Of a stretch of DNA of 64,000 nucleotides, positions 2,990 to 49,236 are shown piece by piece. How positions within the stretch are numbered: position 1 is the stretch's first letter; every line of letters begins with the position of its first letter. The notes under the pieces are model-generated. The model was not told the DNA's origin, did no database searches, and saw only the letters and a list, made by a program, of their open reading frames with translations. The translations under genes and the position numbers were made by a program. Source of the DNA: Phascolarctobacterium sp. (lineage in GTDB: Bacteria; Bacillota; Negativicutes; Acidaminococcales; Acidaminococcaceae); the NCBI GenBank assembly GCA_034117325.1, contig JAXEPX010000009.1, positions 3,208 to 67,207 on the forward strand, written 5' to 3'.

Positions 2990-3034
2990 AAGACACTGAA
3001 ACCCTTGCTCCGTGCGGGGTTTTCAGTGTCTTTT
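2990..3034 (+). terminator. Rho-independent terminator after amtB
   Basis: AAGACACTGAAACCC...GGGGTTTTCAGTGTCTT followed by a T-run. Confidence 0.8.
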
Positions 3035-3158
3035 GCGTAAAAGCGTAAAGAAAACGTAAAGTTATTTCGGTGAAAAAATTCCGTCAAGTTTTTCGGCGTG
3101 CTCTTGTTTTGCTCTTGAAAATCAATTGAAATCTATAATGCATTATTCCGAATGAAAC

Positions 3159-3187
3159 TTGTATTATACGGAATGATATGCTATACT
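3159..3187 (+). promoter_or_regulatory. Sigma70-type promoter of the AAA-nuclease gene
   Basis: TTGTAT-17 nt-TATACT with extended -10 TG; RBS GGGAGG before ATG 3221. Confidence 0.65.
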
Positions 3188-3220
3188 GTATTTAAAGATA
3201 AAGGCTAGGGAGGTAGAGCT

Positions 3221-5179
3221 ATGAGCGCATATATGACTACTAGAGAAGCAGCTACGCTGTGGGGCATCTCCATGCGTCGCATTAATCTTTTGTGCCAGGA
3301 AGGGCGCATAGAGGGCGCCTACAAGGAGGGCAGGCAGTGGCTCTTGCCCAGTAATGCTAGTAAGCCACAGGATAAAAGGAAAAAGGTGGCTCCTGTGAGC
3401 ATTGTTTCTCCGTCCAAGCAGCCTAAAAAGGTTGTATATCCTACGGCTGATCAATATGTAGTGCCCATGAAGGTGAGCGAGGGCTTTATGCAATATTCCT
3501 GCCCTAAGCTTCCGTTGCCTATAGGTGTATCGGAGTATAGGTCTGTTTCTAGTGAGGGCTATTATGTTGATAAAACATTGTTTATTAGAGATATCCTAGA
3601 TATTCATAGAAAGGGTACTTATCTTTTCACTCGTCCGCGGCGTTTTGGTAAAACACTGAATATGGATATGCTGCGCACGTTTTTCGAAATCAGTGATGAG
3701 GATACTGCCCAGTATTTCCGCGATAAAAAAATCTGGGCTTGTGGCGAGCGCTATACCTCCGAGCAGGGTAAATATCCGGTTATTTTTCTTTCATTAAAAG
3801 ATATCAAAAACCTAACTTGGGAAGAAACATTATCGTTATTGTCTAATGTTATAAGCTCTGAGTTTGCTCGGCACAGGGAGCTAGAAACAAGCACAAAGAT
3901 TTCTCGTAGACAAATATATGATACCATCGTCAAGGGTAAGCCTACTGCAGCGGATTTAAGTACTAGCATCAAGGAGCTTTCGCGTATGCTGCACGAGCAT
4001 CATGGTGTACCGCCCATTATTTTGATTGATGAATATGATACGCCAATTATCGCTGGTTATTATAATGGATATTACGAGCAAGTGATTAATTTTATGCGTA
4101 CCTTCTACACCAGCTGTCTGAAGGACAATATACACATCAAATTTGCTGCCTTGACAGGTATCCTGCGTGTGGCGAAGGAGAGCATTTTTAGCGGACTCAA
4201 TAATTTAACCGATTTTTCAATTTTAGAAGATCGTTTTAGCGAATACTTTGGTTATACAGACGCTGAAGTGCGCACGATGGCGGAGTATTTTGAAGCTCCT
4301 CAGGAATATACGAATATCAAAAAATGGTACGATGGCTATCGCTTCGGAGAAACGGATATTTTTAATCCCTGGTCCATGAATAATTACTTTGATCGTGGCT
4401 ATAAGCCCCGTCCGTATTGGGTTAATACAAGCAGTAATGACATTATCAGTGAGCTTCTGGAATCTGTTGAGCAGAAGACTGCGGAGAAGCTAGAAGCGTT
4501 AATGCAGGGCAAAACTATTACTGCTCCTGTTGATACGGGTATTGTCTTTAGTGAGTTAAAGCAGGATCCCAACGCTATATTTAGCTTCCTGCTCTTTACC
4601 GGCTATTTAAAGGCAGTTTCTGTAACTGATGATTGGTTTGAAGGCATGCGCTGCGAGCTCGCTATTCCCAATATGGAGCTACGCTATGTCTATAATAAGG
4701 ATATTTTGACCAAGATTAGACGTAGACTGCAAGGCTTTGACTCCTATGACTTTATTAATGCAGTTGCGCAAATGGACGTGGAGAATATGCAGCGTTATCT
4801 TAATGACTACCTCATGCGCAGTGTTAGCTACTATGATGGCGCGCAGGAGAGTTTTTATCACGGACTCGTGCTGGGGCTTTGCGTGTTGTTCGGTAAATGC
4901 TATACTACTACCTCCAACCGTGAGGCGGGAACTGGGCGGTACGATATTCAGCTCATGCCGTTAGACAGTGCTTATCCTGGCATTATCCTCGAGATTAAAG
5001 CCTGCAAGGAGGCTGACGAGGAAGCCTTGGCTATGGTAGCGCAGCAGGCTCTTGAGCAGATAAACGAGCGCAATTATATCGCAGAGCTACGCGCGCGTAA
5101 TGTGAAGTCTATTTTAAAATATGGAGTTGCCTTCAGCGGTAAGCAGTCCCAGATACTGGCTGCCTGGGAGCGTTATTGA
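3221..5179 (+). CDS. N-terminal excisionase-like HTH + AAA-ATPase-like domain + C-terminal PD-(D/E)XK nuclease
   Basis: MTTREAATLWGIS...RI HTH; Walker A RPRRFGKTL; Walker B IILIDEYD; ESFYHG and SNREAGTGRYDI...ILEIK nuclease motif. Confidence 0.88.
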   Translation: MSAYMTTREAATLWGISMRRINLLCQEGRIEGAYKEGRQWLLPSNASKPQDKRKKVAPVSIVSPSKQPKKVVYPTADQYVVPMKVSEGFMQYSCPKLPLPIGVSEYRSVSSEGYYVDKTLFIRDILDIHRKGTYLFTRPRRFGKTLNMDMLRTFFEISDEDTAQYFRDKKIWACGERYTSEQGKYPVIFLSLKDIKNLTWEETLSLLSNVISSEFARHRELETSTKISRRQIYDTIVKGKPTAADLSTSIKELSRMLHEHHGVPPIILIDEYDTPIIAGYYNGYYEQVINFMRTFYTSCLKDNIHIKFAALTGILRVAKESIFSGLNNLTDFSILEDRFSEYFGYTDAEVRTMAEYFEAPQEYTNIKKWYDGYRFGETDIFNPWSMNNYFDRGYKPRPYWVNTSSNDIISELLESVEQKTAEKLEALMQGKTITAPVDTGIVFSELKQDPNAIFSFLLFTGYLKAVSVTDDWFEGMRCELAIPNMELRYVYNKDILTKIRRRLQGFDSYDFINAVAQMDVENMQRYLNDYLMRSVSYYDGAQESFYHGLVLGLCVLFGKCYTTTSNREAGTGRYDIQLMPLDSAYPGIILEIKACKEADEEALAMVAQQALEQINERNYIAELRARNVKSILKYGVAFSGKQSQILAAWERY

Positions 5180-5754: not shown

Positions 5755-5763
5755 AATAATGCA

Positions 5764-5810
5764 TAAAAAAGCTGACTACGTCCGTGCGAAAGACGTAGTC
5801 AGCTTTTTTG
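5764..5810. terminator. Bidirectional terminator, copy 1 of a ~46-bp direct repeat
   Basis: AAAAAAGCTGACTACGTC-CGTGCGAAA-GACGTAGTCAGCTTTTTT; two substitutions versus 11930-11975. Confidence 0.85.
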
Positions 5811-11904: not shown

Positions 11905-11929
11905 TAATGCGCAAGAATTTAAAACACTA

Positions 11930-11975
11930 TAAAAAAGCTGACTGCGTCCGTGTGAAAGACGTAGTCAGCTTTTTG
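11930..11975. terminator. Bidirectional terminator shared by tetR and ftsH, copy 2 of the direct repeat
   Basis: AAAAAAGCTGACTGCGTC-CGTGTGAAA-GACGTAGTCAGCTTTTT. Confidence 0.85.
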
Positions 11976-13861: not shown

Positions 13862-14047
13862 ACGTTCATCTCCTTATATTTTATTATGCTACTATTTTAC
13901 TATTATTAAGGGAAATACACAAATGAAAGTTTTGTAAACAAGTAAAACTGTACACCGCAAGAATACTTGTATACATTCCTCTCAGACCTTGCCAATCCGC
14001 GCGCTTTTATATACAATTATGCTTGTAACTGTAAAGGAGGTTCGACT

Positions 14048-17000
14048 ATGCCTAAAATTAACACAGTCCTAGTTGCTAACCGCGGCGAAATCGCCATTCG
14101 CGTCTTCCGCGCCTGCAATGAACTCGGTATTCGTACCGTCGCTATATATTCGAAAGAAGATACTCTCTCCCTGCACCGCAACAAAGCCGACGAGGCTTAC
14201 CAGGTAGGCGAGGGCAAGAGTCCTACCGATGCTTATCTTGACATTGAGGACATCATGCGCATTGCGCGTGAGCACGAGGTAGATGCTATCCACCCGGGCT
14301 ACGGCTTCCTCTCTGAAAATAGCAATCTGGCTCGCCGTTGCCAAGAAGAGGGCATCACCTTCATCGGTCCTCGTCTTGAGCATCTCATCATGTTCGGCGA
14401 CAAGATTAACGCTCGCAAACAGGCTGAGCTCGCCGGCATCCCCATGATTCCCGGCAGCAATGGCACCATAAATTCCATGCAAGAGGTGCTGGATTTTGGT
14501 GAAGCCTATGGCTATCCCATCATCATCAAGGCCGTTAATGGCGGCGGTGGTCGTGGCATGCGCGTGGTACACTCCGCTGAGGAGGCAATCACCGCCTACG
14601 ACATGGCTAAAAGCGAAGCGAAGAAGGCTTTTGGCAATGATGAAATTTATTTAGAAAAATATCTGCAAAATCCGAAGCATATCGAGGTCCAGATTATCGG
14701 CGACGAGCATGGCAATCTGATGCACCTCTTCGAGCGTGACTGCTCCGTACAGCGCCGTCACCAAAAGCTCGTTGAGATTGCGCCCGCCTTCTCCCTGCCC
14801 TTGGAGCAACGCAAGGCAATTTGTGAGGCTGCTGTGAAGCTGATGAAAAACGTTAATTACATCAGCGCCGGCACTGTTGAGTTCCTCGCTACCCCCGATG
14901 GCAAATTCTACTTTATCGAGGTTAACCCCCGCATTCAGGTAGAGCATACCGTTACCGAGCAAATCACTGGTATCGATATTGTGCAAGCGCAAATCAAGGT
15001 TGCCGAGGGCTACAGCCTGCACGGCCCTGAAATCGCTCTGCCCGAGCAGGACGAGCTGCACACCATTGGCCACGCTATTCAGTGCCGTATTACCACCGAG
15101 GATCCGTCCAATAACTTCATGCCCGACACTGGCAAGCTCATTACCTACCGCAGTGGTGGCGGTATGGGTATTCGTCTCGACGGCGGCAACGCTTTCACGG
15201 GCTCTGTTATTACTCCGTACTACGATTCCCTCCTGGTTAAGGCTACTACCTGGGGCCTGACCCATCAAATCGCAATTACCAAGATGCTGCGCTGCCTGAA
15301 GGAATTCCGTATCCGCGGCGTTAAGACTAATATTCAATTCCTGGAAAATGTGCTGCAAAACGAGCACTTTGTGAAGGGTGACTATACCACTGACTTCGTA
15401 GATACTACGCCCGAGCTTTTCGTCTTCCCGAAAACTCTGGACCGTGGCAATAAGCTCCTGCATTACATTGCCGATATCACCGTTAATGGTTATTCCAATG
15501 TGGGCGTACAGCCGAAGCCTGACTTCGCGCCGCTGAATATGCCGAAGCATTATAATGGCTTCCTGGCGCTGGGCGCTAAGCACATCCTCGATACCCAGGG
15601 CCCTGACGGCCTGGCTGAGTGGGTAATGGCTCAACAGGAGGTACTGGTAACCGATACCACCTTCCGTGATGCGCATCAATCCCTGTTCGCTACTCGTCTG
15701 CGTACTGCCGACATGCTGCGCGTAATGCGCGACACTGCTGGCAAGCTGCCCGGCTTCTTCTCCTTCGAATGCTGGGGCGGTGCGACCTTCGACGTAGCTT
15801 ATCGCTTCCTAGACGAAAGTCCTTGGCAGCGTTTGGCTCAATTCCGCGAGGCTGCACCCAATATCCTGCTGCAAATGCTGCTGCGCGGTGCGAACGCCGT
15901 GGGCTACACCAGCTATCCGGATAATGTTGTTAAGGAATTTATCAAATTGGCTGCGAAAAACGGCATCGACGTGTTCCGTATTTTCGATAGCCTGAATGGT
16001 CTCGATAATATGCGTCTGTCCATCGATACTGTCCGCGAAAGCGGCAAGGTGGCAGAGGCTGCTCTTTGCTACACGGGCGATATTCTTGATCCGCGTCGCG
16101 ATAAATACGATTTACAATACTATATTAATATGGCGAGGGAGCTGGAAAAAGCCGGCGCCAATATTATCGCCATTAAGGACATGGCAGGCCTCTTGAAGCC
16201 CGAGGCAGCATATCGCCTCGTAAGCAGCCTGAAGTCCTATGTGGGCGTGCCCATTCATCTGCATACGCACGAGGGCAGCGGTAACGCTATCTATACCTAC
16301 GCGCGTGCAATTGACGCAGGTGTCGACATTGTCGATACTGCGATGAGCTCCATGAGCTGTGGCACGAGCCAACCCTCCACCTCCAGCCTGTACTATGCGC
16401 TGAGCGGTCATCCGCGTCAACCGCGTCTGGATGTGGACTCTCTGAACGAAATGTCCCGCTATTGGGAGACTGTCCGCCCCTACTACAAGGCTGCGGATAG
16501 AACTGAGAATTTCCCGAATCCCGAGGTTTACTGCCATGAGATGCCGGGCGGCCAATATACCAATCTGAAGCAACAGGCACAGGCTCTGGGCCTCATGCAG
16601 CGTTGGGAAGAGGTCAAGGATATGTATCATCGCGTATCCATGATGTTTGGCGACCTGATTAAGGTTACTCCGTCCTCCAAGATTGTCGGCGATATGGCGC
16701 TCTTCATGGTGCAGAATGAGCTCTCCGAGGAGGATGTTTATGCTAAGGGCGATGTGCTGGACTTCCCGGCCTCCGTCGTAGAATTCTTTGAGGGACGTAT
16801 TGGTGTGCCCTACCAGGGCTTCCCTGAAAAGCTGCAGCAAATCGTGCTCAAGGGTCGCAAGCCCATTACCGAGCGTCCGGGTGCAGTGCTGCCGCCGGTT
16901 GATTTTGAAGCAGTACGCGAGAAGCTGAAGGAGATGAATGCTCCGACTACGGACGAGGCTGTAAGCTCCTATTGCCTGTATCCGAAGGTATTTACCGATT

Positions 17001-17494
17001 GGGTAACGCGTTATAATGAGTTTGGCGATGTTTCTGTGCTGGATTCTCCCACCTTCTTCTTCGGCATGACGCCGGGCGAGAAGATTAAGGTTGAGATTGA
17101 GCAGGGCAAGGTGCTGGTAATTAAGCTAGTACACGTTTCCGAGGCTAATGCTGCTGGCATGCGCACGGTAACCTTCGAGTTCAATGGTCTGCCGCGTGAG
17201 ATTCAGGTGAAGGATCGCAATGCGAAGGCTACGGAGGTAACCCGCAAGAAGGCGGATAAGTCTAATCTGGGCGAGATTGCTGCTTCCCTCTCTGGCTCCG
17301 TGGTGAAGGTGCTGGTGGAGAAGGGCCAGGCTGTGACGAAGGGCACGCCGCTCATCGTTACTGAGGCGATGAAGATGGAGACGACGCTGTCTGCGCCGCT
17401 CAGCGGTATCGTGAGCATTATTCACGTGGCTCCGGGCGAGCGCGTGGAGAGCGGGGACTGCCTGATGGAGATTAAGACGCAGGTGGACAAATAA
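14048..17494 (+). CDS. pyc: Pyruvate carboxylase (start ATG 14048 after AAGGAGG)
   Basis: ANRGEIA biotin carboxylase, RDAHQS carboxyltransferase, HEMPGGQYTNL, EAMKME biotin site. Confidence 0.97.
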   Translation: MPKINTVLVANRGEIAIRVFRACNELGIRTVAIYSKEDTLSLHRNKADEAYQVGEGKSPTDAYLDIEDIMRIAREHEVDAIHPGYGFLSENSNLARRCQEEGITFIGPRLEHLIMFGDKINARKQAELAGIPMIPGSNGTINSMQEVLDFGEAYGYPIIIKAVNGGGGRGMRVVHSAEEAITAYDMAKSEAKKAFGNDEIYLEKYLQNPKHIEVQIIGDEHGNLMHLFERDCSVQRRHQKLVEIAPAFSLPLEQRKAICEAAVKLMKNVNYISAGTVEFLATPDGKFYFIEVNPRIQVEHTVTEQITGIDIVQAQIKVAEGYSLHGPEIALPEQDELHTIGHAIQCRITTEDPSNNFMPDTGKLITYRSGGGMGIRLDGGNAFTGSVITPYYDSLLVKATTWGLTHQIAITKMLRCLKEFRIRGVKTNIQFLENVLQNEHFVKGDYTTDFVDTTPELFVFPKTLDRGNKLLHYIADITVNGYSNVGVQPKPDFAPLNMPKHYNGFLALGAKHILDTQGPDGLAEWVMAQQEVLVTDTTFRDAHQSLFATRLRTADMLRVMRDTAGKLPGFFSFECWGGATFDVAYRFLDESPWQRLAQFREAAPNILLQMLLRGANAVGYTSYPDNVVKEFIKLAAKNGIDVFRIFDSLNGLDNMRLSIDTVRESGKVAEAALCYTGDILDPRRDKYDLQYYINMARELEKAGANIIAIKDMAGLLKPEAAYRLVSSLKSYVGVPIHLHTHEGSGNAIYTYARAIDAGVDIVDTAMSSMSCGTSQPSTSSLYYALSGHPRQPRLDVDSLNEMSRYWETVRPYYKAADRTENFPNPEVYCHEMPGGQYTNLKQQAQALGLMQRWEEVKDMYHRVSMMFGDLIKVTPSSKIVGDMALFMVQNELSEEDVYAKGDVLDFPASVVEFFEGRIGVPYQGFPEKLQQIVLKGRKPITERPGAVLPPVDFEAVREKLKEMNAPTTDEAVSSYCLYPKVFTDWVTRYNEFGDVSVLDSPTFFFGMTPGEKIKVEIEQGKVLVIKLVHVSEANAAGMRTVTFEFNGLPREIQVKDRNAKATEVTRKKADKSNLGEIAASLSGSVVKVLVEKGQAVTKGTPLIVTEAMKMETTLSAPLSGIVSIIHVAPGERVESGDCLMEIKTQVDK

Positions 17495-17514: not shown

Positions 17515-17592
17515 TTGCGCTAACCTTATGCAAGTGTTATACTAATTTCATATCCGAATCTACGAAAAGCAGCGGACTTACCGCTGCTTTTT
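17515..17592 (+). promoter_or_regulatory. Promoter followed within ~45 nt by an intrinsic terminator (candidate short RNA or attenuated leader)
   Basis: TTGCGC-17-TATACT with extended TG; AAAAGCAGCGG-ACTTA-CCGCTGCTTTTT at 17565-17592. Confidence 0.55.
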
Positions 17593-17626: not shown

Positions 17627-17801
17627 ATTCGCAATTAGTTATCAAACGCTCAGTGCGGCTTTTTTTACGCTCATTTCGTGGTGTTCAATAACGAAATCTC
17701 GCCAAACTCGCTAACGCTCAAACATGTCTCGATTTCTATTGAACAATCCACTCATTCGCTAAAAGCCGCAATCATTCGCTTATTGATTAACTAATTGCTC
17801 A
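17627..17801 (+). repeat. Family-1 ~175-bp palindromic element, copy A
   Basis: Ends ATTCGCAATTA...TAATTGCTCA; core ACGAAATCTCGCCAAACTCGCTAACGCTCAAACATGTCTCGATTTC shared with 34604-34777 and 43721-43890. Confidence 0.88.
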
Positions 17802-17837: not shown

Positions 17838-17985
17838 TTCGGCAGCGAAGCGGTGATAATGGCAAAGCCCTTTTTTTGCGGAGCTTTTTTGGGCGAGCAA
17901 AAAAAGCGACGTTTCCCGCGCTTTCTAAAAGCGCGCACTTTCTTGCTTCTTCTTTGGTGACAAAGAAGAAGGATGAGAAGTAGAT
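17838..17985. repeat. REP-like double T-tract/A-tract hairpin stack
   Basis: CTTTTTT-GGGCGAGC-AAAAAAAG and CTTCTTCTTTG-GTGA-CAAAGAAGAAG hairpins; GCAGCGAAGCGG motif. Confidence 0.5.
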
Positions 17986-18029: not shown

Positions 18030-19586
18030 ATGCGAGAATCATTATATAATTATATCAAAAATCATATATATGACGACGGTGTGTTTACCGAGCCCGCGCT
18101 CCCTGATTTAGACGAGGCGTACAGCGTCATTCAGCTGGGGCAGAGTGACGCCTTTTTCTACACAGCCGACATGCCCAGTGATGTGGAGGATGCGAGCGCC
18201 ATTGTGACAGCCTTGCGCGAGTATCTCGCGGAGCCTGTGCAGGAAAAAAGGCAGAGCCTCTACCGCCTGTTGAAAAATAAGACGCTAGCCGAATACTGCG
18301 ATCCCTTTATCTCCACCTTCGATAGTGACGATATGAACGAGGTGGCCTTGGATTTGGCACGGCGCTTTTTATACAATGCCCGCCACCGCGAGCCCTTGAA
18401 GTTTGCGCTGCTCCTCTTTGGACTGTACGGTATGGAGCGCATCGAGCGCGAGGAGCCGGAGCTGTGGCAGGATTTGCTGCTGGTGGCGCACTGTGAGGAG
18501 TTTACCTTTGCCTTCCTCTATGCCTGCCGTAGCGGTAATTATATTTGCCAAAAGGCTGTCTGGGAGCTCCTAGGCTGCACGAAAGGCTGGGGCAAGGTCT
18601 TTTGCATTATCGATTGTCAATGTCCCGATGATGAGCACCGGCTGTGGCTCTTGAAAAATGGCCCCGATATCGAGGTTGAGTATCCGCCGCTAGCAGTGAA
18701 GCTCATTACTGCTACGCATTTGGGAGCTTTTCTAGAGCGTCCTGTGCTAGATTACGAGTGCTACAAGAATACCATTGCCATTGTGGGCAATTATATGCAG
18801 CTTCTTCTGCATTATCAGCCTGCGGCAGTGCGCGAAAATTATAATTTAGCAGATATTGATTTATATAAGCTGCTCAAGGCTATCCTGCACCATGCCCTGT
18901 ACTTATGCGTGGAGCCCGAGGATATGCTGGATATGCTGACGCTTGCTACGCTGCTGCGCCAGCTGCAGGAGGAGGGAGCATATTATTCCCTGTCCCCCAA
19001 TCAAATTCATGAGCTCATTGCGAGCTGCGATAGGCTGGTCTATAGCACTAATTGGGAGCCGCTGATCAAGGAGCGGGTAATTGACGAGGGTCAGATTAAT
19101 TATCGCCTGGCGGATTTTGCCTATGAGCTGGAGCTTGATATTTGGCCCATGCTGTACGATTTCTGGCTGGAGCACCCCGAGGAGTATACGCTGCTGCCGT
19201 ATTTATTGGCCTATGAGGGGGAGCGACGCTCCGTACTAGTGCTAGAGCAGCTGACGCTGAGGCTGAATTTATATCGTGCGGATATGCACTCCTTAATTGT
19301 ACCCCTGCATTATTTACGTAATAATCCAGGTAAGGGTGAGGCTATTGTGTGCGCGGCGCTGGAGTCGATTTTTGAGCTGGTGCGCAGCTGCGCCTGTGAT
19401 GTGCTGGAGGCCTGGGATAGGGAGTATTTTAGTCCGGCGATTATGGAGAGTATTGTCAAGGGCATGCATATGTGTACGGACGAGCTCTTGACTTTGCGCT
19501 TGAGGGCTTTGTATGTGAACGAGCGCTTTGATATGGAGGGCTTTATCCAGAAGCTGAAAAAGCAGCAGCGCGAGGATAGTAAATAA
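18030..19586 (+). CDS. Hypothetical, probably alpha-helical protein (518 aa)
   Basis: Long ORF with RBS AAGGAG; motifs HCEEFTFAF, TKGWGKV, WLLKNG; no function recognised. Confidence 0.75.
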   Translation: MRESLYNYIKNHIYDDGVFTEPALPDLDEAYSVIQLGQSDAFFYTADMPSDVEDASAIVTALREYLAEPVQEKRQSLYRLLKNKTLAEYCDPFISTFDSDDMNEVALDLARRFLYNARHREPLKFALLLFGLYGMERIEREEPELWQDLLLVAHCEEFTFAFLYACRSGNYICQKAVWELLGCTKGWGKVFCIIDCQCPDDEHRLWLLKNGPDIEVEYPPLAVKLITATHLGAFLERPVLDYECYKNTIAIVGNYMQLLLHYQPAAVRENYNLADIDLYKLLKAILHHALYLCVEPEDMLDMLTLATLLRQLQEEGAYYSLSPNQIHELIASCDRLVYSTNWEPLIKERVIDEGQINYRLADFAYELELDIWPMLYDFWLEHPEEYTLLPYLLAYEGERRSVLVLEQLTLRLNLYRADMHSLIVPLHYLRNNPGKGEAIVCAALESIFELVRSCACDVLEAWDREYFSPAIMESIVKGMHMCTDELLTLRLRALYVNERFDMEGFIQKLKKQQREDSK

Positions 19587-21123: not shown

Positions 21124-22167
21124 GTGATAAAAATTCTGCACAGAGTTAAGGCTACGACTAAGGACAGAATTGTCTTTTTGCGTCAATTGGCACTCATTTT
21201 GCGGAGCGGCCTGCCAATCCTAGAAGCAATGGAGCTGCTGCGCATGCAGCTGAGGGGACGCATGGCTCTTTCCTGCTACCATGTACAAAGGCTGCTGCAG
21301 CACGGAAGCTCCCTGGCTGAAGCGATGAGCAAGGAGACTATGCTCTTTACGCCCTTGATGGTACAGTTAGTTAGTGCCGGTGAACTGAGTGGTCAGCTTA
21401 GCCCCGTGCTGGAGGAATTGGCGAAGTATTATGAGCAACAAGATAAGCTGCGTGATTATCTGCTGAAGTCCGCTTTATACCCACTTTTTTTATTAGCTGC
21501 GGCGCTAGCTGTGCTTATCTTTTTCTTTCTCTATATTTTGCCCATTCTAGCAGGGGTGTATGCCAATATGCATCTGCGCCCCTCCGGCATCATGCTGACA
21601 CTGCTTAATTTTCAGGCCTGGCTGAGTACGCATGTGGCGTTAGTAGGTGCTTTGCTAGCAGGCTTAGTATTAGCAGCTCGTTTTTATGGACGCAGATTCT
21701 GCCTTTGGTTGCTTAACAAGCATTGGTGTGGAAATTTTTATAGCTCAATTTATGAAATTCGCTTCTGTAAGCTACTAGCTTTGCTTTTGGATAGCGGATT
21801 AAGTATTACTTCGGCAATGCAAAGCATAGCTGCCAGTATGACTGGTAGCAGCTATGAGCGACAGCTATTGCTTCTCAAAAGCAGGCTGGAACGGGGCGTG
21901 GATATAGCAACTGCTTTGTCAGGTGTAAAGGGCTTGCTTTCGCCCTTAAGCTTAAGCCTCGTAGGTGTTGGCGTAGCGACAGGGTGTTTGCCGGAAATGC
22001 TGCGTGAGGCCGCCAGGCTGGGCGAGGATAATTTAGCAAGCAAGCTGATGCGCTTTAAGGAGCTCTTTACACCTCTTCTGCTACTAATGGTAGCAGGCAT
22101 TATCGCAGTTGTAGTCTGCAGCGTTTTGGGGCCGCTTATGGAAATGATAGCATTATTGCCGGAGTAA
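21124..22167 (+). CDS. Type II secretion/type IV pilus platform protein (ComGB/PilC, GspF family)
   Basis: FLRQLALILRSGLPILEA, AGELSGQL, LYPLFLL; two T2SSF repeats. Confidence 0.88.
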   Translation: MIKILHRVKATTKDRIVFLRQLALILRSGLPILEAMELLRMQLRGRMALSCYHVQRLLQHGSSLAEAMSKETMLFTPLMVQLVSAGELSGQLSPVLEELAKYYEQQDKLRDYLLKSALYPLFLLAAALAVLIFFFLYILPILAGVYANMHLRPSGIMLTLLNFQAWLSTHVALVGALLAGLVLAARFYGRRFCLWLLNKHWCGNFYSSIYEIRFCKLLALLLDSGLSITSAMQSIAASMTGSSYERQLLLLKSRLERGVDIATALSGVKGLLSPLSLSLVGVGVATGCLPEMLREAARLGEDNLASKLMRFKELFTPLLLLMVAGIIAVVVCSVLGPLMEMIALLPE

Positions 22168-22195
22168 AGGCTTCACTTAAAAAGGAGGAAAAATT

Positions 22196-22591
22196 ATGGT
22201 AGGTAAAATTAAGAGTCAAAAGGGTTTCACCTTAATTGAGGTAGTAGCTGCAGCGGCTTTGATAGGTATCTTAGCAACCATGCTCATGCCCTCGCTTTCA
22301 GGTGCTAATGACAGAGTTAAGAATGCCAAATTGAGCAATGATTTGGCGACGATTGATCAGGCAATTCAGCTCTACCGCATGGATACCGGCAAGGTGCCCA
22401 GCGATTTAACGAGCCTGGATAGCAGCTATCTGGGCGGCAAGCTGGAGTTTAAGGATGCTGCAGGGGACGAGCTTGTTTATACGGCTGATGGCAATGGCAG
22501 CGATTATAGCTTGACCGGTAAAAATTCCAGTGGTAGTGTTGTGAAGTCTCCTGCTAGCAAGGACAGTGTTCAAGCACCTTCTGAATCCTAA
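22196..22591 (+). CDS. Major pilin/pseudopilin (ComGC/GspG-like)
   Basis: Class III signal KGFTLIEVV; DLATIDQAIQLYRMDTGKVP. Confidence 0.88.
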   Translation: MVGKIKSQKGFTLIEVVAAAALIGILATMLMPSLSGANDRVKNAKLSNDLATIDQAIQLYRMDTGKVPSDLTSLDSSYLGGKLEFKDAAGDELVYTADGNGSDYSLTGKNSSGSVVKSPASKDSVQAPSES

Positions 22592-23069
22592 AGCTGCTCT
22601 TCGCTTACAGAGAGGAAGCATTTTAATTGAATTCCTCACTGTGATGGCGCTAGCGGCAATTTTTAGTGAATTTCTGCTGGTGCAAAGTAGTGCTTTTTGG
22701 CAGTATTATTATAAAAATCAAGTGCGGCTGGTAGCGCAGCTCCTAGCTGCTGATTTAAGAAGCCTACAGCAGGAAACGCTCTTTGAAGTAGGCACACCTC
22801 GGGATATAAAAACTAGCAGTCAAAATAAATCGGTTTATGGCATTTATTTAACTAGAACCGTCAAAAAGCGCGTTGCTTTTGATGACTATGGTTGTGGTGA
22901 TGTTTATTTCAAATATGGCGTTGACACCCTGCGCTTCAGCTATAATGGTGCACCTTCGCAGACAGTGAATAGCTCTTATTCATTAGGGCATGCGAAGCTG
23001 GCTAATTTTAGCTGTCGTGTTGAGGTGCAGCCTGTAACCGGGAGGGTGTTAGTCTATGAGGAAGAGTAG
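22566..23069 (+). CDS. Minor pilin-like protein (ComGD-like); start uncertain
   Basis: RGSILIEFL followed by a hydrophobic helix; C-terminal VQPVTGRV. Confidence 0.65.
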   Translation: MFKHLLNPKAALRLQRGSILIEFLTVMALAAIFSEFLLVQSSAFWQYYYKNQVRLVAQLLAADLRSLQQETLFEVGTPRDIKTSSQNKSVYGIYLTRTVKKRVAFDDYGCGDVYFKYGVDTLRFSYNGAPSQTVNSSYSLGHAKLANFSCRVEVQPVTGRVLVYEEE

Positions 23070-30237: not shown

Positions 30238-34597
<4,360 letters not shown>

Positions 34598-34603
34598 ATG
34601 ATG

Positions 34604-34777
34604 ATTCGCAAATTATATATCTCTTCAGTCAACTGAGATTTCTTAACGCGAATTTCGTTGGGAACAATTACGAAATCTCGACAAACTCGCTAACGCTCAA
34701 ACATGTCTCGATTTCTATTGTTCCATCAACTTATTCGCTAAAATCTCAATTCCTTCCGAGATATTATAATTTGCTCA
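34604..34777 (+). repeat. Family-1 palindromic element, copy B
   Basis: ATTCGCAAATTA...TAATTTGCTCA ends with the same core as copy A; arms differ but remain complementary. Confidence 0.88.
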
Positions 34778-34816: not shown

Positions 34817-34870
34817 AAAGGCGCCCCTTTAGGGGAGCTGGCTGCGAGCGTAGCGAGCAGACTGAGGGGT
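34817..34870 (+). repeat. Family-3 REP-like element
   Basis: AGGGGAGCTGGCTGCGAGCGTAGCGAGCAGACTGAGGGGT. Confidence 0.8.
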
Positions 34871-34899
34871 CATTTGAGCGTTATTTAAGGAGAAAAAAC

Positions 34900-35586
34900 A
34901 TGAGAAAAACTATAAATTTACTAATAATGCTGTTGTGTCTCATTACTTCCGTGAGTGCCCTCGCCGCTCCGAAGGAGGAAATCAGTTCCATTGACGCGCT
35001 GGATAAGGGCGTGGCGGATACGGGCGAGACGCATTTTACGAAGGGCGAGAAGCAGCTGGTGGAGTGCACGCTGCCCTATACGGTGGCAGTGCTGCCGATT
35101 GTAGATACGTCCGGCCTGGAGGGGCGCAGTCGTGAGATGGCGGTGGGCGCAGTGAAGGATGCCTTGAAGAAGAAGTATCCCGGTAAGGCTACGAGTGTTA
35201 CGCACATTGTGAATAATAATCTGCTACAGCAGGCTCTGGTGGCACATCCGATGGAGAATCCCGAGGTGCCGACCTTAAATGAGCTGGTGGCTATTGGCGA
35301 GGCCTGTGGTGCGGACAGGGTAATTTTCGTGAGCATTCTGCCGGCGCGTGAGAAGGAAACGGGCTTTATGGTGATTGCAGGCACGCAGACCTATAGTGCG
35401 ACGGTGCTGATGAAGCTGAAGTGCGTGGATGTGAATGAGGAGAAGTTCCTCTTTAATCAGAATGTGGAGGGCATTGGCTCCTCTACCTCCATTAATTTCT
35501 GGAAGATTGGCGAGCCGAGCAAAGCGAAGGCTGTGAAGCGCGGCGTGAATGATTGCATGGAGTTTTTCCTGACGAGCTTCGAGTAA
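34900..35586 (+). CDS. Exported hypothetical protein (possible TolB-N/CsgG-like fold)
   Basis: Signal peptide ending ...SALA; TVAVLPIVD and GEACGADRVIFV pattern. The fold call is inference. Confidence 0.7.
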   Translation: MRKTINLLIMLLCLITSVSALAAPKEEISSIDALDKGVADTGETHFTKGEKQLVECTLPYTVAVLPIVDTSGLEGRSREMAVGAVKDALKKKYPGKATSVTHIVNNNLLQQALVAHPMENPEVPTLNELVAIGEACGADRVIFVSILPAREKETGFMVIAGTQTYSATVLMKLKCVDVNEEKFLFNQNVEGIGSSTSINFWKIGEPSKAKAVKRGVNDCMEFFLTSFE

Positions 35587-36571: not shown

Positions 36572-36699
36572 CTTCACTGATCGTTAATCAAACGTTTAAA
36601 TCATTTGATTAACGATTTTTGTGCATCCTATTCTGAAAACTGATACAATGATATTTAGCTGTATTATAGAAAAATTTATGAGAAGGGATGTATAAGGAT

Positions 36700-37977
36700 A
36701 TGAAAAAGAAGTTATTAGCTTTTGCTGTGGCTGCGGCTTTGTTAGCTCCGCAGGCTGTTGGCGCTGAAGGCTTTGCAATTTATGAATGGTCCGCTGAAGG
36801 TCTGGCAATGGGTGGTGCGCGTATGTTCGCAGAGAACGATGCTGCGAATATGGCTTACAACCCCGCTTCTATTACGAAGGTTAAGGGTGAGGCTGCGAAG
36901 ATTTCTGCAACCTATCTCAGCCCGCATGGCAAGTATGATGCATATCAAGGCGAAAACATTGTAGAATCCGGTCATAACCGTGTTCACCCTGCATGGGCGC
37001 CTGGTATGTACTATGTAAAGCAAATGAACGATAAAGAATGGATCGGTATGGGTACCTATAGCCGTTTTGGCATGGTTTCCCAGTTCGAGCGTAATTCTTT
37101 GGCTGGTACTAACGCTTTTAGCTCTAAGCTGAATGGTATTTCCTTAGGCATTAACTATGCACGTAAGCTGGACAAGAAGTTTACTGCTTCTTTAGGTGCT
37201 GAAGTAAACTATGTTGGCCTGCAATTAGATAAGAACCAAGGTATTCAGACTGAAACTCCGTTAGGTGTTGTTGGTGGCCGTGGTGGTATGCATATTGAGG
37301 GCGATAGCTATGCACTGGGCTGGAATGCTGCAGCTAATTATGAGTTTGATGATAAGAACGAAATCGGTGTAGTATATCGCAGCAAGATTACTCATTCCAT
37401 GGAGGCAGATTATGACTTCCATCCCAGCATGGCTTTGTATAGCGCTAATGGTGTAGTACCTGTTGGTGTTACCCATATGAAGGGTGGCGCTTATGGCGTT
37501 GTTACTCTGCCTGAAAGCATCGATGTTGGTTATTCTCATAAATTCAATGATAAGACTCGTATCGAGGCTAGATATACCTGGACTCGTTGGGAACGTTATG
37601 ATGCTCTGAATATGAACTTTGATACTTTGGGATATGTAGAGCAACCGAAGAATTGGTCCAATGGCCAACGCTTTGCTCTTGGCTTGGAGCATAAATTCAG
37701 TGATAAATATTCTGGCTTAATGGGTATTGCATATGATAAGTCTTCCATTCCTTACGATGGTGGCGACTTCATGATTCCGACTGGTACTCGTACTACTTAT
37801 GGTTTAGGTGCGCAATATCATGATAAGAAGCAAACCTTAGGCTTTGCTTTGGCATGGATGAATGTTGGTTGCCTTGATTTTGCTGGCCACCCTGCAAAAG
37901 GTGATGCTTTCACTTCTGCTCACACTCGCGACAGCTACACGAAGATTGCTTCCATTTCTTACCAACGTAATTTCTAA
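36700..37977 (+). CDS. OmpP1/FadL/TodX-family outer-membrane transporter
   Basis: EGFAIYEWSAEGLAMGGA N-terminus, AYNPASI, WTRWERY, C-terminal Phe. Confidence 0.85.
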   Translation: MKKKLLAFAVAAALLAPQAVGAEGFAIYEWSAEGLAMGGARMFAENDAANMAYNPASITKVKGEAAKISATYLSPHGKYDAYQGENIVESGHNRVHPAWAPGMYYVKQMNDKEWIGMGTYSRFGMVSQFERNSLAGTNAFSSKLNGISLGINYARKLDKKFTASLGAEVNYVGLQLDKNQGIQTETPLGVVGGRGGMHIEGDSYALGWNAAANYEFDDKNEIGVVYRSKITHSMEADYDFHPSMALYSANGVVPVGVTHMKGGAYGVVTLPESIDVGYSHKFNDKTRIEARYTWTRWERYDALNMNFDTLGYVEQPKNWSNGQRFALGLEHKFSDKYSGLMGIAYDKSSIPYDGGDFMIPTGTRTTYGLGAQYHDKKQTLGFALAWMNVGCLDFAGHPAKGDAFTSAHTRDSYTKIASISYQRNF

Positions 37978-41995: not shown

Positions 41996-42883
41996 ATGCT
42001 GGAAATGTTTGAAATGGAATTTATGCAGCGGGCTTGGCTGGCTGGCTTAATTATGGCCTTGATCTGCCCGCTCATTGGTAGCTTTCTCGTGCTGCGTCGT
42101 CAGTCCCTCATCGGTGACGGACTGGGGCATATCGCCTTTGCCGGTGTGGCCGGGGGCGCGCTGTGGGGCTATAGCCCTGTGCTAAGCGCGGCAGCGGCTA
42201 CCATTCTTGGTGCGCTGGCCATTGAAAGAGTGCGTGTGCGCTTAAGCGAGGCCGCAGATATGGTGCTGGCTATTTTTTTCTATAGTGGCATGGGCTTGGC
42301 AGTTGTTTTTACCGGACTTAATAAGGATGGTGGCTTTAATCTGGGCAGCATTCTTTTCGGCAGCTTGATGACGGTTAGCAGCAAGGACTTGGTAATTGTA
42401 GCCCTGCTAGCCTTATTTACCGTGCTTTTTGTGGTGCTTTTCTATCGTCCACTGCAATATTTGACCTTTGACGAGACCTCAGCGAAGGTAGCAGGCCTGC
42501 CAGTGGAGCGACTGAACCTGCTGCTGGCACTGCTGACAGCACTTACTGTGGCCCTTTCCATGCGCATCGTGGGCCTCTTACTCGTATCCGCCATGATGGT
42601 TATCCCCGTGGCCTGCGCTCTGCAGACGGCACGGAGCTTCGGCGGCACGATTATGCAAAGCATGCTCTATGGCCTGCTCACCGTGAGCCTGGGCCTAAGC
42701 ATTTCCTATTACATGAACCTCGCACCCGGTGGCACCATTGTGCTGATGGGAACGCTGCTCTTTTTGCTGAGCTGCCTAGTGGGCACGCGCGTAAGAACAG
42801 CTCAGCCCGTACCGGGACAATGCCAGTGCAAGGTCTGCGAGGAGGAGGCCGCAGAGGCTGGGAAAGAGGGGCTGGCTAAATGA
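41996..42883 (+). CDS. Metal ABC transporter permease (ZnuB-like)
   Basis: GDGLGHIAFAG, LFGS, VGLLLVSAMMVIP. Confidence 0.9.
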   Translation: MLEMFEMEFMQRAWLAGLIMALICPLIGSFLVLRRQSLIGDGLGHIAFAGVAGGALWGYSPVLSAAAATILGALAIERVRVRLSEAADMVLAIFFYSGMGLAVVFTGLNKDGGFNLGSILFGSLMTVSSKDLVIVALLALFTVLFVVLFYRPLQYLTFDETSAKVAGLPVERLNLLLALLTALTVALSMRIVGLLLVSAMMVIPVACALQTARSFGGTIMQSMLYGLLTVSLGLSISYYMNLAPGGTIVLMGTLLFLLSCLVGTRVRTAQPVPGQCQCKVCEEEAAEAGKEGLAK

Positions 42884-43701
42884 GTGTTCGAGCTGATTTA
42901 CACATCCACACCACTGCCTCCGACGGTACCTGGACACCGCGTGAGCTCATTGAGCAGGCGCAAGCAGTGGAGCTAGGTCTACTCGCCGTGACGGACCACG
43001 ATAGCGTGGTCAATGTAGCAGAGACGCAGCGCCTCGCTAAGGCTGCAGGACTCAAGTTTCTACCAGCGTCTGAAATATGCTCCACGAAGGAAGATATCTC
43101 CTTTCACATCCTGGGCTATGGCATCGACATCACGAATAAACACTTACTTGAGCTCATAAACCATAACGAAGACCTACTTGCACAAAAGGATGTCGATAGC
43201 ATTCGTCTGCTTGAACGTGACGGCTGGCCTGTAGATAGCCTGGAATTCACTCGTTATGATTACGACAGACGACGCGGGGGCTGGCGAGCACTCGCCTACC
43301 TAATAGACAAGGGCCTCTGCACAGACGTCAACGACTTCTTCAAGCGCATCTTCACGCCTGAGCACGACCTAGGCTTTCCTGAATTTCCGCCCATTTCGCA
43401 GGTCGTAGACGCTATCCACGGCGCTGGTGGGGTAGCCATTTGCGCTCATGCAGCCAGTGGCTTCCATGGACCTGGACTAGAGCGCGTCATGGACATCCTG
43501 CGCGTCGAAAGCTTCGACGGCTTCGAATGCTACCACAGTGGTCACAACGAAGCAGGCACCCAACGCCTGCTCGCACACTGCCGCAAGCACGACCTCATGA
43601 TCACAGGCGGTAGCGACTGCCACGGCACCTTCGTGCCAGGACGCCGCCTCGGCGAGCCTTATGTAGATACCAGCATGCTTAGATTAGACGGATTGCTTTA
43701 A
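42880..43701 (+). CDS. PHP-domain phosphoesterase (YciV/TrpH-like)
   Basis: DLHIHTTASDG, TDHD, AHA, TGGSDCHG. Confidence 0.9.
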   Translation: MSVRADLHIHTTASDGTWTPRELIEQAQAVELGLLAVTDHDSVVNVAETQRLAKAAGLKFLPASEICSTKEDISFHILGYGIDITNKHLLELINHNEDLLAQKDVDSIRLLERDGWPVDSLEFTRYDYDRRRGGWRALAYLIDKGLCTDVNDFFKRIFTPEHDLGFPEFPPISQVVDAIHGAGGVAICAHAASGFHGPGLERVMDILRVESFDGFECYHSGHNEAGTQRLLAHCRKHDLMITGGSDCHGTFVPGRRLGEPYVDTSMLRLDGLL

Positions 43702-43720: not shown

Positions 43721-43890
43721 TGAGCAATTATAAAAATACGGAGCGAATAGGAATTTTAGCACATAAGTGCATGGTTCAATAGAAATTGAGCCATGTTTGA
43801 GCGAAGCGAGTTTGGCGAAATTTCGTAATTGAACCGCACGAAATGGGCGTCAGAAATTCCTGTTGAGCGCAGTATTTTATAATTGCGAAT
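43721..43890 (-). repeat. Family-1 palindromic element, copy C (inverted)
   Basis: Reverse complement reads ATTCGCAATTA...TACGAAATTTCGCCAAACTCGCTTCGCTCAAACATGGCTCAATTTC...TAATTGCTCA. Confidence 0.88.
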
Positions 43891-43991: not shown

Positions 43992-45119
43992 ATGGAAAAA
44001 TCTAAAGTATACTTCACCGACTTCCGCACCAAACCCGGTGGCGCAAGCATGCCACAAAAACTCCAAAAACTCGCCCAAAAAGCAGGCATCGCCAACATCG
44101 ACTTCGAAAACAAATTCGTAGCCATCAAAATCCACTTCGGCGAACTCGGTAACATCTCCTACCTGCGTCCCAACTACGCCAAAGCCGTAGTCGACCTCGT
44201 CAAAAAACTTGGCGGCCGTCCCTTCCTCACCGACTGCAACACCCTCTACGTAGGCAGCCGCAAACACGCACTAGAACACATGGACACCGCCTACGAAAAC
44301 GGCTTCAGCCCCTTCTCAACCGGCTGCCACGTTATCATCGCTGACGGCCTCAAGGGCACCGACGAAGCCTACGTACCTGTTAAAAACGGCGAACTCGTTC
44401 AAGAAGCAAAAATCGGCCGTGCCATCATGGACGCCGACATCGTCATCAGCCTCAACCACTTCAAGGGCCACGAAATGGCTGGCTTCGGCGGCGCGTTGAA
44501 AAACCTTGGCATGGGCAGCGGCTCCCGCGCCGGAAAAATGGAAATGCATAACGATGGCAAACCCAAAGTAAACCAAAAGAAATGCATCGGCTGCGGCCGT
44601 TGCGTCAATATCTGCGCCCATGGTGCGCCCAGCATCACCGAGCGCAAGGCTACTATCGACATCAATAAATGCGTGGGCTGTGGTCGCTGCCTTGGCCTGT
44701 GTCCTGTTGACGCCATCCATACCCTCTACGACGCAAGCATGGACAACCTTAACAAAAAAATGGCCGAATATGCGCAAGCAGTCTGCCAGGACCGTCCTAG
44801 CTTCCACATCAGCCTCATCGTCGACGTATCTCCCTACTGCGACTGCCATGCTGAAAATGATGCACCCATCGTGCCCAATATCGGCATGCTGGCCTCCTTC
44901 GACCCCGTGGCACTTGACCAAGCCTGCGCTGATCTCGTTAACGCTGCACCTGCTGTAGCTAACTCCGTACTGGGCGAGCATCTGACTGCAGACCCCGAAG
45001 GCTGCCAGGGTCATGACCATTTCCATAATACTACGCCTGAATCCGAATGGAAGATGTGCCTTGAGCATGCAGAAAAGATTGGCGTAGGTATGCGCGAGTA
45101 CGAACTTATTAAGATGTGA
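43992..45119 (+). CDS. DUF362-domain protein with a 2x[4Fe-4S] ferredoxin insert
   Basis: KIHFGE, HFKGH...GGALKNLGMG, CIGCGRC...C and CVGCGRC...C, DPVALD. Confidence 0.88.
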   Translation: MEKSKVYFTDFRTKPGGASMPQKLQKLAQKAGIANIDFENKFVAIKIHFGELGNISYLRPNYAKAVVDLVKKLGGRPFLTDCNTLYVGSRKHALEHMDTAYENGFSPFSTGCHVIIADGLKGTDEAYVPVKNGELVQEAKIGRAIMDADIVISLNHFKGHEMAGFGGALKNLGMGSGSRAGKMEMHNDGKPKVNQKKCIGCGRCVNICAHGAPSITERKATIDINKCVGCGRCLGLCPVDAIHTLYDASMDNLNKKMAEYAQAVCQDRPSFHISLIVDVSPYCDCHAENDAPIVPNIGMLASFDPVALDQACADLVNAAPAVANSVLGEHLTADPEGCQGHDHFHNTTPESEWKMCLEHAEKIGVGMREYELIKM

Positions 45120-49081: not shown

Positions 49082-49106
49082 TTAAGAGAGAAGAATAATT
49101 TACGAG

Positions 49107-49236
49107 AACCTCTCCGCCTCGCTACGCTCGGCACCTCCACTTTAAAGGGGAGGCTCTCTAGATGCTAAATTTAGGAGAAAGGCTCCCCATGCAAGGGGAG
49201 CTGGCTGCGAGCGAAGCGAAGCAGACTGAGAGGTTT
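49107..49236. repeat. Two family-3 REP-like units in inverted arrangement (BIME-like)
   Basis: AACCTCTCCGCCTCGCTACGCTCGGCACCTCC...GGGGAGG, then GGCTCCCC...GGGGAGCTGGCTGCGAGCGAAGCGAAGCAGACTGAGAGGTT. Confidence 0.8.

Follow-up and report, generated by a model that had tools for sequence, protein, structure and literature searches.

Several groups of bacterial repeats and replication signals are built as hairpins. ERIC, Correia/NEMIS, RUP, SMAG and bcr1 are intergenic rods of 100–170 nt that can be folded as RNA or DNA, and REP, ERIC and Correia elements affect the fate of mRNA. In the attC sites of integrons, structure is kept while sequence varies, the bottom strand folds and is active as single-stranded DNA (ssDNA), and extrahelical bases matter. 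Some of the enterobacterial REPs that depend on RAYT have an AAGCG-N-AGCGC tip (PMC2817692). Long hairpins also make up the ssoA origins, whose terminal loop has a conserved TAGCG(T/A) (PMC4598088). In CTXphi, RstA nicks ori(+) in the hairpin-rich 167-bp Ig-1 beside rstR, and this function is known for Ig-1 as a whole (PMC8265649, PMC4439123). The DNA mini-hairpin GCGNAGC/GCGNNAGC has a melting temperature of 70–76°C with any N, r(GCGAAAGC) melts at 39°C, and mini-hairpins of the GCGNAGC type are found in the origins of G4, St-1 and alpha3, in ssiA of RSF1010 and in N4 promoters (PMC13037366). Here we describe a family of intergenic hairpin repeats that occurs in at least 10 bacterial phyla and is apparently undescribed. 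Three of its copies, referred to as A, B and C, lie in a 64,000-nt stretch of the genome of Phascolarctobacterium sp. (contig JAXEPX010000009.1 of assembly GCA_034117325.1, positions 3,208–67,207), which is called the window below.

A first-pass annotation, made from the letters of the window, had reported three copies of about 175 bases, A and B on the plus strand and C on the minus strand. When checked in the sequence, all three were found at the reported positions and strands (Table 1), and their ends, ATTCGCAA(A)TTA...TAA(T)TTGCTCA, also read as described. A covariance model run with filters off over the 64 kb matched only these copies (47.6–51.7 bits), and the next match scored 8.5 bits. 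The core CAAACTCGCT-AA-CGCTCAAACATG was exact in copies A and B at the tip positions given in Table 1, with 0 matches in 100 shuffles. In copy C, where the core is on the minus strand, its spacer is one base, i.e., one shorter than in A and B. On the strand that was first written, the rods of A, B and C fold with energies of -47, -50.3 and -47.3 kcal/mol, respectively (z = -6.3, -8.8 and -6.5 relative to shuffles). The energies of the complementary strands are -56.8, -64.0 and -60.5 kcal/mol, respectively. The alignment of the three copies contains 61 predicted pairs, of which 21 have changed on both sides with pairing kept; one-sided changes number 2. The arms that had been singled out as rewritten yet pairing, such as GTTCAA/TTGAAC versus GAACAA/TTGTTC, are among the 21 compensated pairs. 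The rod also has a few fixed asymmetric internal loops, for instance GTTAAG opposite TA, and same-strand motifs recur at its base and in the internal loops.

The element is found beyond the Phascolarctobacterium genome, which corrects the first-pass annotation. In a scan of one genome per species with 22 specified core bases, the exact tip (23–24 nt) was identified in at least 120 genome stretches, which represent at least 10 phyla, with a chance expectation of 0.14. The hosts among the matches listed were Alpha-, Beta- and Gammaproteobacteria, Clostridia, Thermotogaceae, Elusimicrobia, Planctomycetia, Nitrospira, Saprospiraceae, Thermoanaerobaculia and a CPR bacterium (Magasanikbacterium). 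Plasmids also carried the core, namely one of Microcystis and small ones of Bacillus cereus. In every lineage folded, it formed the tip of a rod, whose length ranged from 78 to 280 nt. The arms had little sequence in common between lineages, and their G+C content tracked that of the locus or host (r = 0.96, over a range of 26–71% G+C), with the tip being fixed. That the arms follow host composition argues against contamination and for long residence. Thus, an origin from contamination or adaptors was ruled out, and although the taxon labels of metagenome-assembled genomes may be wrong, the match in arm composition argues that the elements are resident.

Since the copies were retrieved via the exact core, the invariance of the core is partly by construction. 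Real variation is shown by extra copies at the same loci, which were mismatch-tolerant or model matches. In the tip variants, the stem of the mini-hairpin (GC-GNA-GC) covaries and is swapped or lengthened (CC-GCA-GG, CCC-GCA-GGG, CC-GAA-GG, GGC-GATA-GCC and CGCGC-GCA-GCGCG), with the G-N(N)-A loop and the TYTGAG...CGAGTTTG flanks being kept. Some tips are enlarged by tandem pentamers (GAGCG AAGCG TAGCG TAGCG AG; Table 1), which resembles microsatellite slippage at the mini-hairpin. A coding explanation of the tip was ruled out, because its length varies by one base and the open reading frames (ORFs) across it differ between hosts. Spurious long ORFs run across the repeats in many G+C-rich loci (e.g., L064 3115–3738 and L043 299–1888), where the translated tip reads MFERSEFA or FERSERSERSEF; the annotation of public genomes is likely to list ORFs of this kind as hypothetical proteins.

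The five pairs beside the tip were paired in 88–98% of 116 distinct copies, and all four pair types occurred at each position. For the tip-proximal stem of 48 diverse copies, 96.3% of the cells paired, compared with 78.1% in shuffles (0 of 500 reached the observed value), and with 19–55% in a control in which the partners were slid. The covariation first seen in three copies thus holds with more of them. It also holds across species: in nine pairs of copies that lie between the same genes, 65 two-sided changes were found at predicted pairs versus about 19 expected, and 77% of them kept the pair. With the arms aligned without favouring either wobble type, the isolated mismatches on the strand first written comprised 28 G.T versus 73 A.C (p = 9e-6), and pyrimidine-pyrimidine mismatches dominated. 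Moreover, the complement of this strand was the stabler one in 106 of the 116 copies, A, B and C included, by about 10 kcal/mol (Wilcoxon p = 5e-18). Such a clear asymmetry between the strands speaks for a single-stranded form and not for a symmetric duplex or cruciform. This agrees with the folded RNA or ssDNA rod proposed previously, but the well-folding strand is the complement of the one that had been described.

On the well-folding strand, the tip reads TTTGA-GCG-N(N)-AGC-GAGTTTG, and the bases of the apparent loop pair as C-G, A-T, G.T, T-A, G.T and G-C around a small loop. The core of the first-pass annotation is an open loop only on the strand written there; the other strand pairs almost throughout. 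In copy A, for instance, the plus strand of the tip forms a pyrimidine-rich loop without pairs. At its centre, the tip of the well-folding strand has the exact consensus of the DNA mini-hairpin GCGNAGC/GCGNNAGC, with GCGTTAGC in A and B and GCGAAGC in C, and the only free positions of the conserved tip are the N or NN of this consensus. An RNA GNRA loop is fitted by only 5 of 28 two-base variants. Because few variants fit GNRA and the centre matches the DNA mini-hairpin, DNA is favoured over RNA. Judged from the sequence of the tip, for which a DNA mini-hairpin is a better fit than a tetraloop of RNA, the acting molecule is more likely DNA, and the choice between RNA and ssDNA that had been left standing would fall on ssDNA. 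The family shares with the mini-hairpin of Hirao and co-workers its exact centre and a G-N(N)-A loop that is retained in the stem variants. Different from the family, however, that mini-hairpin is a physical motif rather than a genetic element. In the family, it caps a 170-nt rod and is set in further invariant bases (CATGTTTGA...GAGTTTG).

We consider it about an even chance (probability of roughly 0.5) that the family is a REP/BIME-like non-autonomous repeat, which is active as one DNA strand and whose fixed tip is read by a trans-acting ssDNA enzyme. How the copies fold and covary, the asymmetry of their strands and their distribution, copy number and genomic context are observations; we infer that DNA is the actor, that a protein reads the tip and that copying is transposition-like. 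The well-folding single strand would nucleate at the mini-hairpin GCG-N(N)-AGC in the tip, which would be bordered by tandem G.A and G.T pairs (TTTGA...GAGTTTG), and would then zip from the mini-hairpin into the 170-nt rod with its few asymmetric internal loops. The complementary strand would be unable to pair in the tip and would expose the same 19–21 bases as an open pyrimidine-rich loop. The fixed tip may thus serve as the handle for a trans-acting ssDNA protein, and the candidate readers are a nickase or transposase of the HUH or Rep_trans type, or a priming enzyme. The arms would need only to pair and could therefore drift with host composition, their complementarity being selected, perhaps aided by hairpin-templated repair. 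Copies would spread to the 3' ends of genes and then persist there for a long time.

The behaviour of the family in genomes resembles in several respects that of REP/REPIN/BIME repeats and their RAYT (a Y1 HUH protein). Both are high-copy extragenic hairpins at the 3' ends of genes, and both are non-autonomous, lack target duplications and persist for long at orthologous sites. In addition, both form inverted doublets and mosaic arrays in Proteobacteria, and certain enterobacterial REPs share an AGCG-N-AGCG mini-hairpin tip (PMC2817692). In metagenomes of pig gut, the habitat of the window organism, the depth over the element was 10–100 times that of its flanks, with sharp common ends. The depth over copy B was 30–60 times that of its flanks in the metagenome contigs. 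The contigs of other copies part from the window sequence at 17627, 34602–34605 and 34780, and because they diverge there, the ends of the element at these positions are real. In the search for a subfamily-specific pattern, no further copies of the window type were found in the metagenome contigs, and exact-protein look-ups led to contigs that break at the repeat or bear the same copy. Among the loci below 55% G+C, 13 spacers were convergent, 18 co-directional and 1 divergent. In Proteobacteria, the rods lie within mosaics with other small hairpins and short tandem repeats, and tandem arrays were also found. Inverted doublets about 200 nt apart are frequent there, e.g., in Comamonadaceae, and none is found in the window.

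Two further arrangements were observed. In Curvibacter sp. PAE-UM (L088 4855–6131), a 1.3-kb insert of lower G+C content lies between two inverted copies and contains a 298-residue ORF for a secreted or membrane protein without Pfam match; at this locus in a Hylemonella genome (L017 703–745), two copies abut. A short form was found in contigs of the metagenome runs X1 and X3, in which window position 34641 is joined to 34757, so that the outer arms are joined by TTTT and the inner 115 nt with the tip are missing. This form could be a deletion product, or it could be the outer hairpin prior to the acquisition of the inner module.

A number of results weigh against a REP/BIME-like repeat that is active as one DNA strand. 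At the junctions of A, B and C, there is no target-site duplication or direct repeat and no conserved flank, and an empty site was found neither in the metagenome contigs nor in contigs with the same copy nor in the independent assembly. A transposase, HUH, Rep_trans or integrase domain was not detected in any of 49 long ORFs out of the 51 that the window contains, which bears out the earlier statement that no cognate transposase is in the window. Similarly, no transposase, HUH or Rep_trans gene was common to 120 loci, where the clusters of neighbouring ORFs consisted of spurious ORFs across the repeat, pilin-like genes and housekeeping genes. RAYT was not found in 49 long ORFs of the window and was not shared by the 120 loci, where only about one copy-adjacent RAYT would be expected in the sample. 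The ssDNA elements of the IS200/IS605 type are expected to show an orientation bias relative to GC skew, but the copies showed none relative to local GC skew (56 versus 60). In Vibrio-type phages, the motif sits off any rod tip. Furthermore, copies at the same locus were compared across species. In seven of the nine pairs, the element was at least as conserved as the flanks, which are mostly coding. Such persistence at the same locus fits a host function as well as a quiet selfish element. In three Clostridium species, a whole 8-bp helix was rewritten at one locus with complementarity kept, and this swap implies that conversion between copies contributes to the apparent compensation. Compensation could also stem from hairpin-templated repair or copy-to-copy conversion.

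It is possible, though we hold this only tentatively, that the tip is a universal ssDNA signal and that the chromosomal rods are mobile or domesticated "orphan origin" elements of at least 10 phyla, whose key site is common with the replication modules of filamentous phages and small plasmids. One strand would then present a compact GNA mini-hairpin with tandem G.A and G.T pairs and the other a fixed 20-base loop, and the readers could be primase or RNA polymerase on ssDNA, or nickases of the Rep_trans or HUH type.

Less probable is that the rod acts as RNA, i.e., as a structured 3'-untranslated region or intergenic RNA that is transcribed by read-through or from an outside promoter. As such, it might be a barrier to exonucleases, a substrate of RNase III or a platform for proteins that bind the purine-rich loops UGAGCG and AGCGAAU. 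Several features speak for an RNA: the strong covariation, a strand asymmetry in which one of the strands is the richer in G.U and G.A pairs, the location at the 3' ends of genes (13 convergent versus 1 divergent spacer), the conservation in situ across species and the same-strand motifs repeated in the internal loops and at the base of the rod. The effect of REP, ERIC and Correia elements on mRNA provides a precedent. However, the orientation relative to co-directional genes is mixed (12 versus 6 across loci), and in two of the three copies of the window the well-folding strand is antisense to the genes. The copies of the window have no promoter or terminator in common, GNRA is not preferred, the GNA/GNNA centre is far stabler as DNA and no Rfam family matches. 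RNA runs were looked for and none was found for the window or for a Curvibacter locus. In rumen metatranscriptomes, an Elusimicrobium locus was thinly covered, and the sole RNA signal was a poly-A stretch.

Also unlikely is that the rod is a replication signal for a conserved host enzyme, such as an ssi/sso site, a minus origin of the G4 type or part of a rolling-circle plus origin, with the chromosomal rods being orphan or captured copies. A universal host reader would explain the identity across phyla without a co-transferred gene, and mini-hairpins of this type are part of the G4/St-1/alpha3 origins, RSF1010 ssiA and N4 promoters (PMC13037366). The ssoA origin is likewise a long hairpin with a conserved terminal-loop motif (PMC4598088). 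The links to phage and plasmid replicons bear on this possibility, and those to the Vibrio-type phages and the B. cereus plasmids also count in favour of the REP/BIME-like repeat that is active as one DNA strand. None of 2.9 million viral contigs contains the exact 22-base tip, which speaks against a replication signal. The shorter form AACTCGCT-N(1-2)-CGCTCAAACA was found in 106 viral contigs, compared with about 3.5 expected, and these fall into four groups. The first consists of ordinary rods in contigs labelled as prophage, including P2-like prophages, which have a true member of the family between the small-terminase and gpL genes. In the second, Vibrio-type filamentous phages, the motif follows rstR and lies 440–1000 nt upstream of rstA (Rep_trans), a region equivalent to Ig-1, and in 12 of 13 contigs it is the mini-hairpin strand that is packaged. 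There, the 19–21 bases of the motif are kept between RstA proteins that are 33–40% identical, while N varies (T, A, AA and AG). Because the motif is away from a rod tip, the link to the Vibrio phages rests on about 20 bases. In the third group, about 45 lambdoid contigs, the motif is inside an O-like initiator gene right after an AT-rich iteron-like stretch; with about 3.5 matches expected, this case could be a single chance event.

Among plasmids, the motif occurred in only about 10 of 72,556, which also counts against a replication signal. In the fourth group, the 5-kb B. cereus plasmids, which are 85% alike overall, a non-coding block with conservation of about 100% (about 2990–3300; L123, pJ75_4) contains the rod together with the iteron-like repeats TTCGC(T/C)AAT.CTCG, and this block is probably the origin region. 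The Bacillus plasmids with the rod have no HUH Rep gene, only an HTH_36 protein that is weakly initiator-like, and the idea of an sso was set aside there for lack of this gene. For the replication of a chromosome, it would make no sense to have tens of copies that point either way relative to GC skew. Moreover, the RSB box of ssoA is absent, and CS-6 is matched only where N is T. The phage and plasmid links, which consist of about 20 bases plus a conserved position, are thus leads that would point toward the machinery of DNA replication or nicking rather than to RNA.

A small intergenic unit with long inverted arms and sharp common ends, present in many copies, would suit a classical miniature inverted-repeat transposable element (MITE), i.e., a deleted insertion sequence whose duplex terminal inverted repeats are bound by a DDE transposase and whose hairpin is a by-product. 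This origin is nevertheless very unlikely, as the conserved part is the centre and the ends differ between lineages, target-site duplications are missing at A, B and C, no related full-length element or transposase was found near 130 copies, no autonomous insertion sequence with the same ends was found in the window or in 120 loci, and neither the strand asymmetry nor the covariation of the whole rod would be expected if duplex ends were read. Least plausible of all, and disfavoured, is the notion of inert palindromes kept by hairpin-templated mismatch repair or conversion with tips conserved through the youth of the copies, since, although two-sided changes far exceed one-sided ones in the copies of the window (21 versus 2) and whole-helix swaps at the same locus are what conversion would produce, conservation is highest in the asymmetric loops and in the tip that does not pair on one strand, both of which repair within the hairpin would erase, phyla with fully diverged arms of host composition have an identical tip, and the strand bias is consistent.

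Although a REP/BIME-like repeat remains the favoured description, the family differs from the described systems. Its unit is a rod of 78–280 nt (170–175 nt in the window), whereas a REP is a palindrome of 20–40 nt. The copies of the window lack the GTAG/CGTC tag and end in ATTCGCAA... and ...TTGCTCA; GTAGCGCAGG is found inside an arm in some G+C-rich relatives, but inconsistently. REP classes are lineage-specific, whereas the tip of the family is the same across phyla. Similar to the family, ERIC, Correia/NEMIS, RUP, SMAG and bcr1 are long intergenic rods, but each is restricted to one genus or family, and their conservation extends over the length of the repeat or is found at its ends, whereas here the arms are free and the tip is fixed. 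With attC, the family shares the conservation of structure over sequence and a single folding strand. However, in attC the stem base with its R''/R' boxes is fixed and the tip is variable, the reverse of the family, and the copies of the window lie among housekeeping genes, without RYYYAAC/GTTRRRY boxes, cassette ORFs or integrase. Like the family, ssoA/ssi and the ori(+) of Ig-1 are hairpin regions (130–170 nt) that act as ssDNA, with a short conserved motif in the terminal loop (CS-6). Mini-hairpins occur in G4 and ssiA, and the 19–21-base form of the tip is in the Ig-1-equivalent of Rep_trans phages. In contrast, ssoA and Ig-1 are single-copy in small replicons and the family is a multi-copy chromosomal repeat. 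The RSB box (TTATGCCGAGAAAATTT) is absent, and the tip NAGCGA equals CS-6 (TAGCG(T/A)) only when N is T. Since the unit size and GTAG tag of REPs, the target duplication of MITEs, the core sites of attC and the RSB box of ssoA were not found and no Rfam family matched, the element is an interspersed hairpin repeat outside any named family.

The earlier remark that the element could not be matched to a named family agrees with the database and literature searches. At gathering thresholds, Rfam 15 gave no matches on the window; those on copy A were at chance level only (E up to 10), and the elements of 13 loci from many lineages also had no match. A full-text search of the literature with both strands of the core, written as DNA or as RNA, gave nothing but unrelated primers, and a descriptive search for such a repeat returned nothing relevant. 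The motif was absent from the REP catalogue (PMC3733652), and the exact tip was absent from 5,426 Escherichia coli genomes, which carry ERIC and REP.

Table 1. Coordinates of the window copies and their tips, and of pentamer-expanded tips in other loci.
Feature	Coordinates	Strand	Remarks
Copy A, rod hairpin, 175 nt	17627..17801	better-folding strand (-); (+) in the first-pass annotation	covariance-model match
Copy B, 174 nt	34604..34777	better-folding strand (-)	covariance-model match
Copy C, 170 nt	43721..43890	better-folding strand (+)	covariance-model match
Tip of copy A	17703..17726	(-)	CATGTTTGA-GCG-TT-AGC-GAGTTTG; mini-hairpin centre GAGCGTTAGCGAG at 17707-17719
Tip of copy B	34682..34705	(-)	mini-hairpin centre 34686-34698
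Tip of copy C	43792..43814	(+)	one-base spacer, CATGTTTGA-GCG-A-AGC-GAGTTTG; centre 43799-43810 includes GCGAAGC
Pentamer-expanded tips	L019 1643-1739, 2030-2126; L046 3785-3881, 4175-4269; L097 1201-1297		

All three copies of the window are intergenic and surrounded by housekeeping genes. Copy A lies between the gene of pyruvate carboxylase (13967–17494), whose terminator hairpin is at 17571–17588, and an ORF of unknown kind for 518 amino acid residues (18030–19586). Copy B starts 7 nt past the stop codon of the gene of NAD-dependent DNA ligase (LigA; 32513–34597), which is preceded by a PcrA/UvrD gene, and an unknown ORF for 228 residues follows downstream (34900–35586). Copy C is between a PHP-domain gene (42880–43701) and a DUF362/4Fe-4S gene (43992–45119), in a 290-nt spacer that was also found in an independent assembly (L132).

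Other repeats were observed in the window. The repeats of a second family, of about 55 nt, are found at 34820–34881 (+), 49106–49155 (-) and 49181–49234 (+). They consist of a CCCC-loop-GGGG hairpin followed by CTGC-GAGCG-N-AGCGA(G/A)-GCAG, i.e., they have the GAGCG-N-AGCGAG tip of the rods without the TTTG flanks, and their metagenome depth was 265–340 versus 12. This suggests that several repeat families of the window genome have one common reader. A third, high-copy repeat is at 17858–17981, 57 nt from copy A and in the opposite orientation. Its minus strand reads TTCTTCTTTG-tcacc-CAAAGAAGAA GCAAGAAAG ..., in which a small A/T hairpin precedes a purine-rich run and hairpins of G+C. This arrangement resembles a module directly 5' of the rods in Neisseria and Comamonadaceae, CCTTCTTTCTTTG-cttcgc-CAAAGAAAGAAGG CAAAGAAAGGCGA. 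In addition, two terminator-like hairpins at 5763–5808 and 11929–11974 (AAAAAAGCTGACT..GTAGTCAGCTTTTT), 6.2 kb apart and 96% identical, flank a block of ABC-transporter and TetR genes. The window also contains a type II secretion (T2SS)/type IV pilus-like cluster at 21124–23069 (T2SS F protein and prepilin N-methyl protein) and a gene for a FadL-type outer-membrane protein at 36688–37977, which together indicate a diderm host.

REPs and MITEs are normally lineage-specific, whereas the tip of this family, about 23 bases, is unchanged from Thermotogaceae and Clostridia to Betaproteobacteria and a CPR bacterium. A fixed tip with host-matched arms implies that the reader of the tip is very conserved. 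The tip also offers a testable handle, with two defined strands, one of which has a known ultra-stable DNA fold. For annotation, the rods break short-read assemblies, yield false ORFs ("MFERSEFA" peptides) and are missing in Rfam, and a model of the family would improve it. If the reader belonged to replication or nicking, these chromosomal repeats would be tied to the origins of ssDNA replicons; if it were an RNA-binding reader, the family would represent a large, so far unannotated class of structured RNAs.

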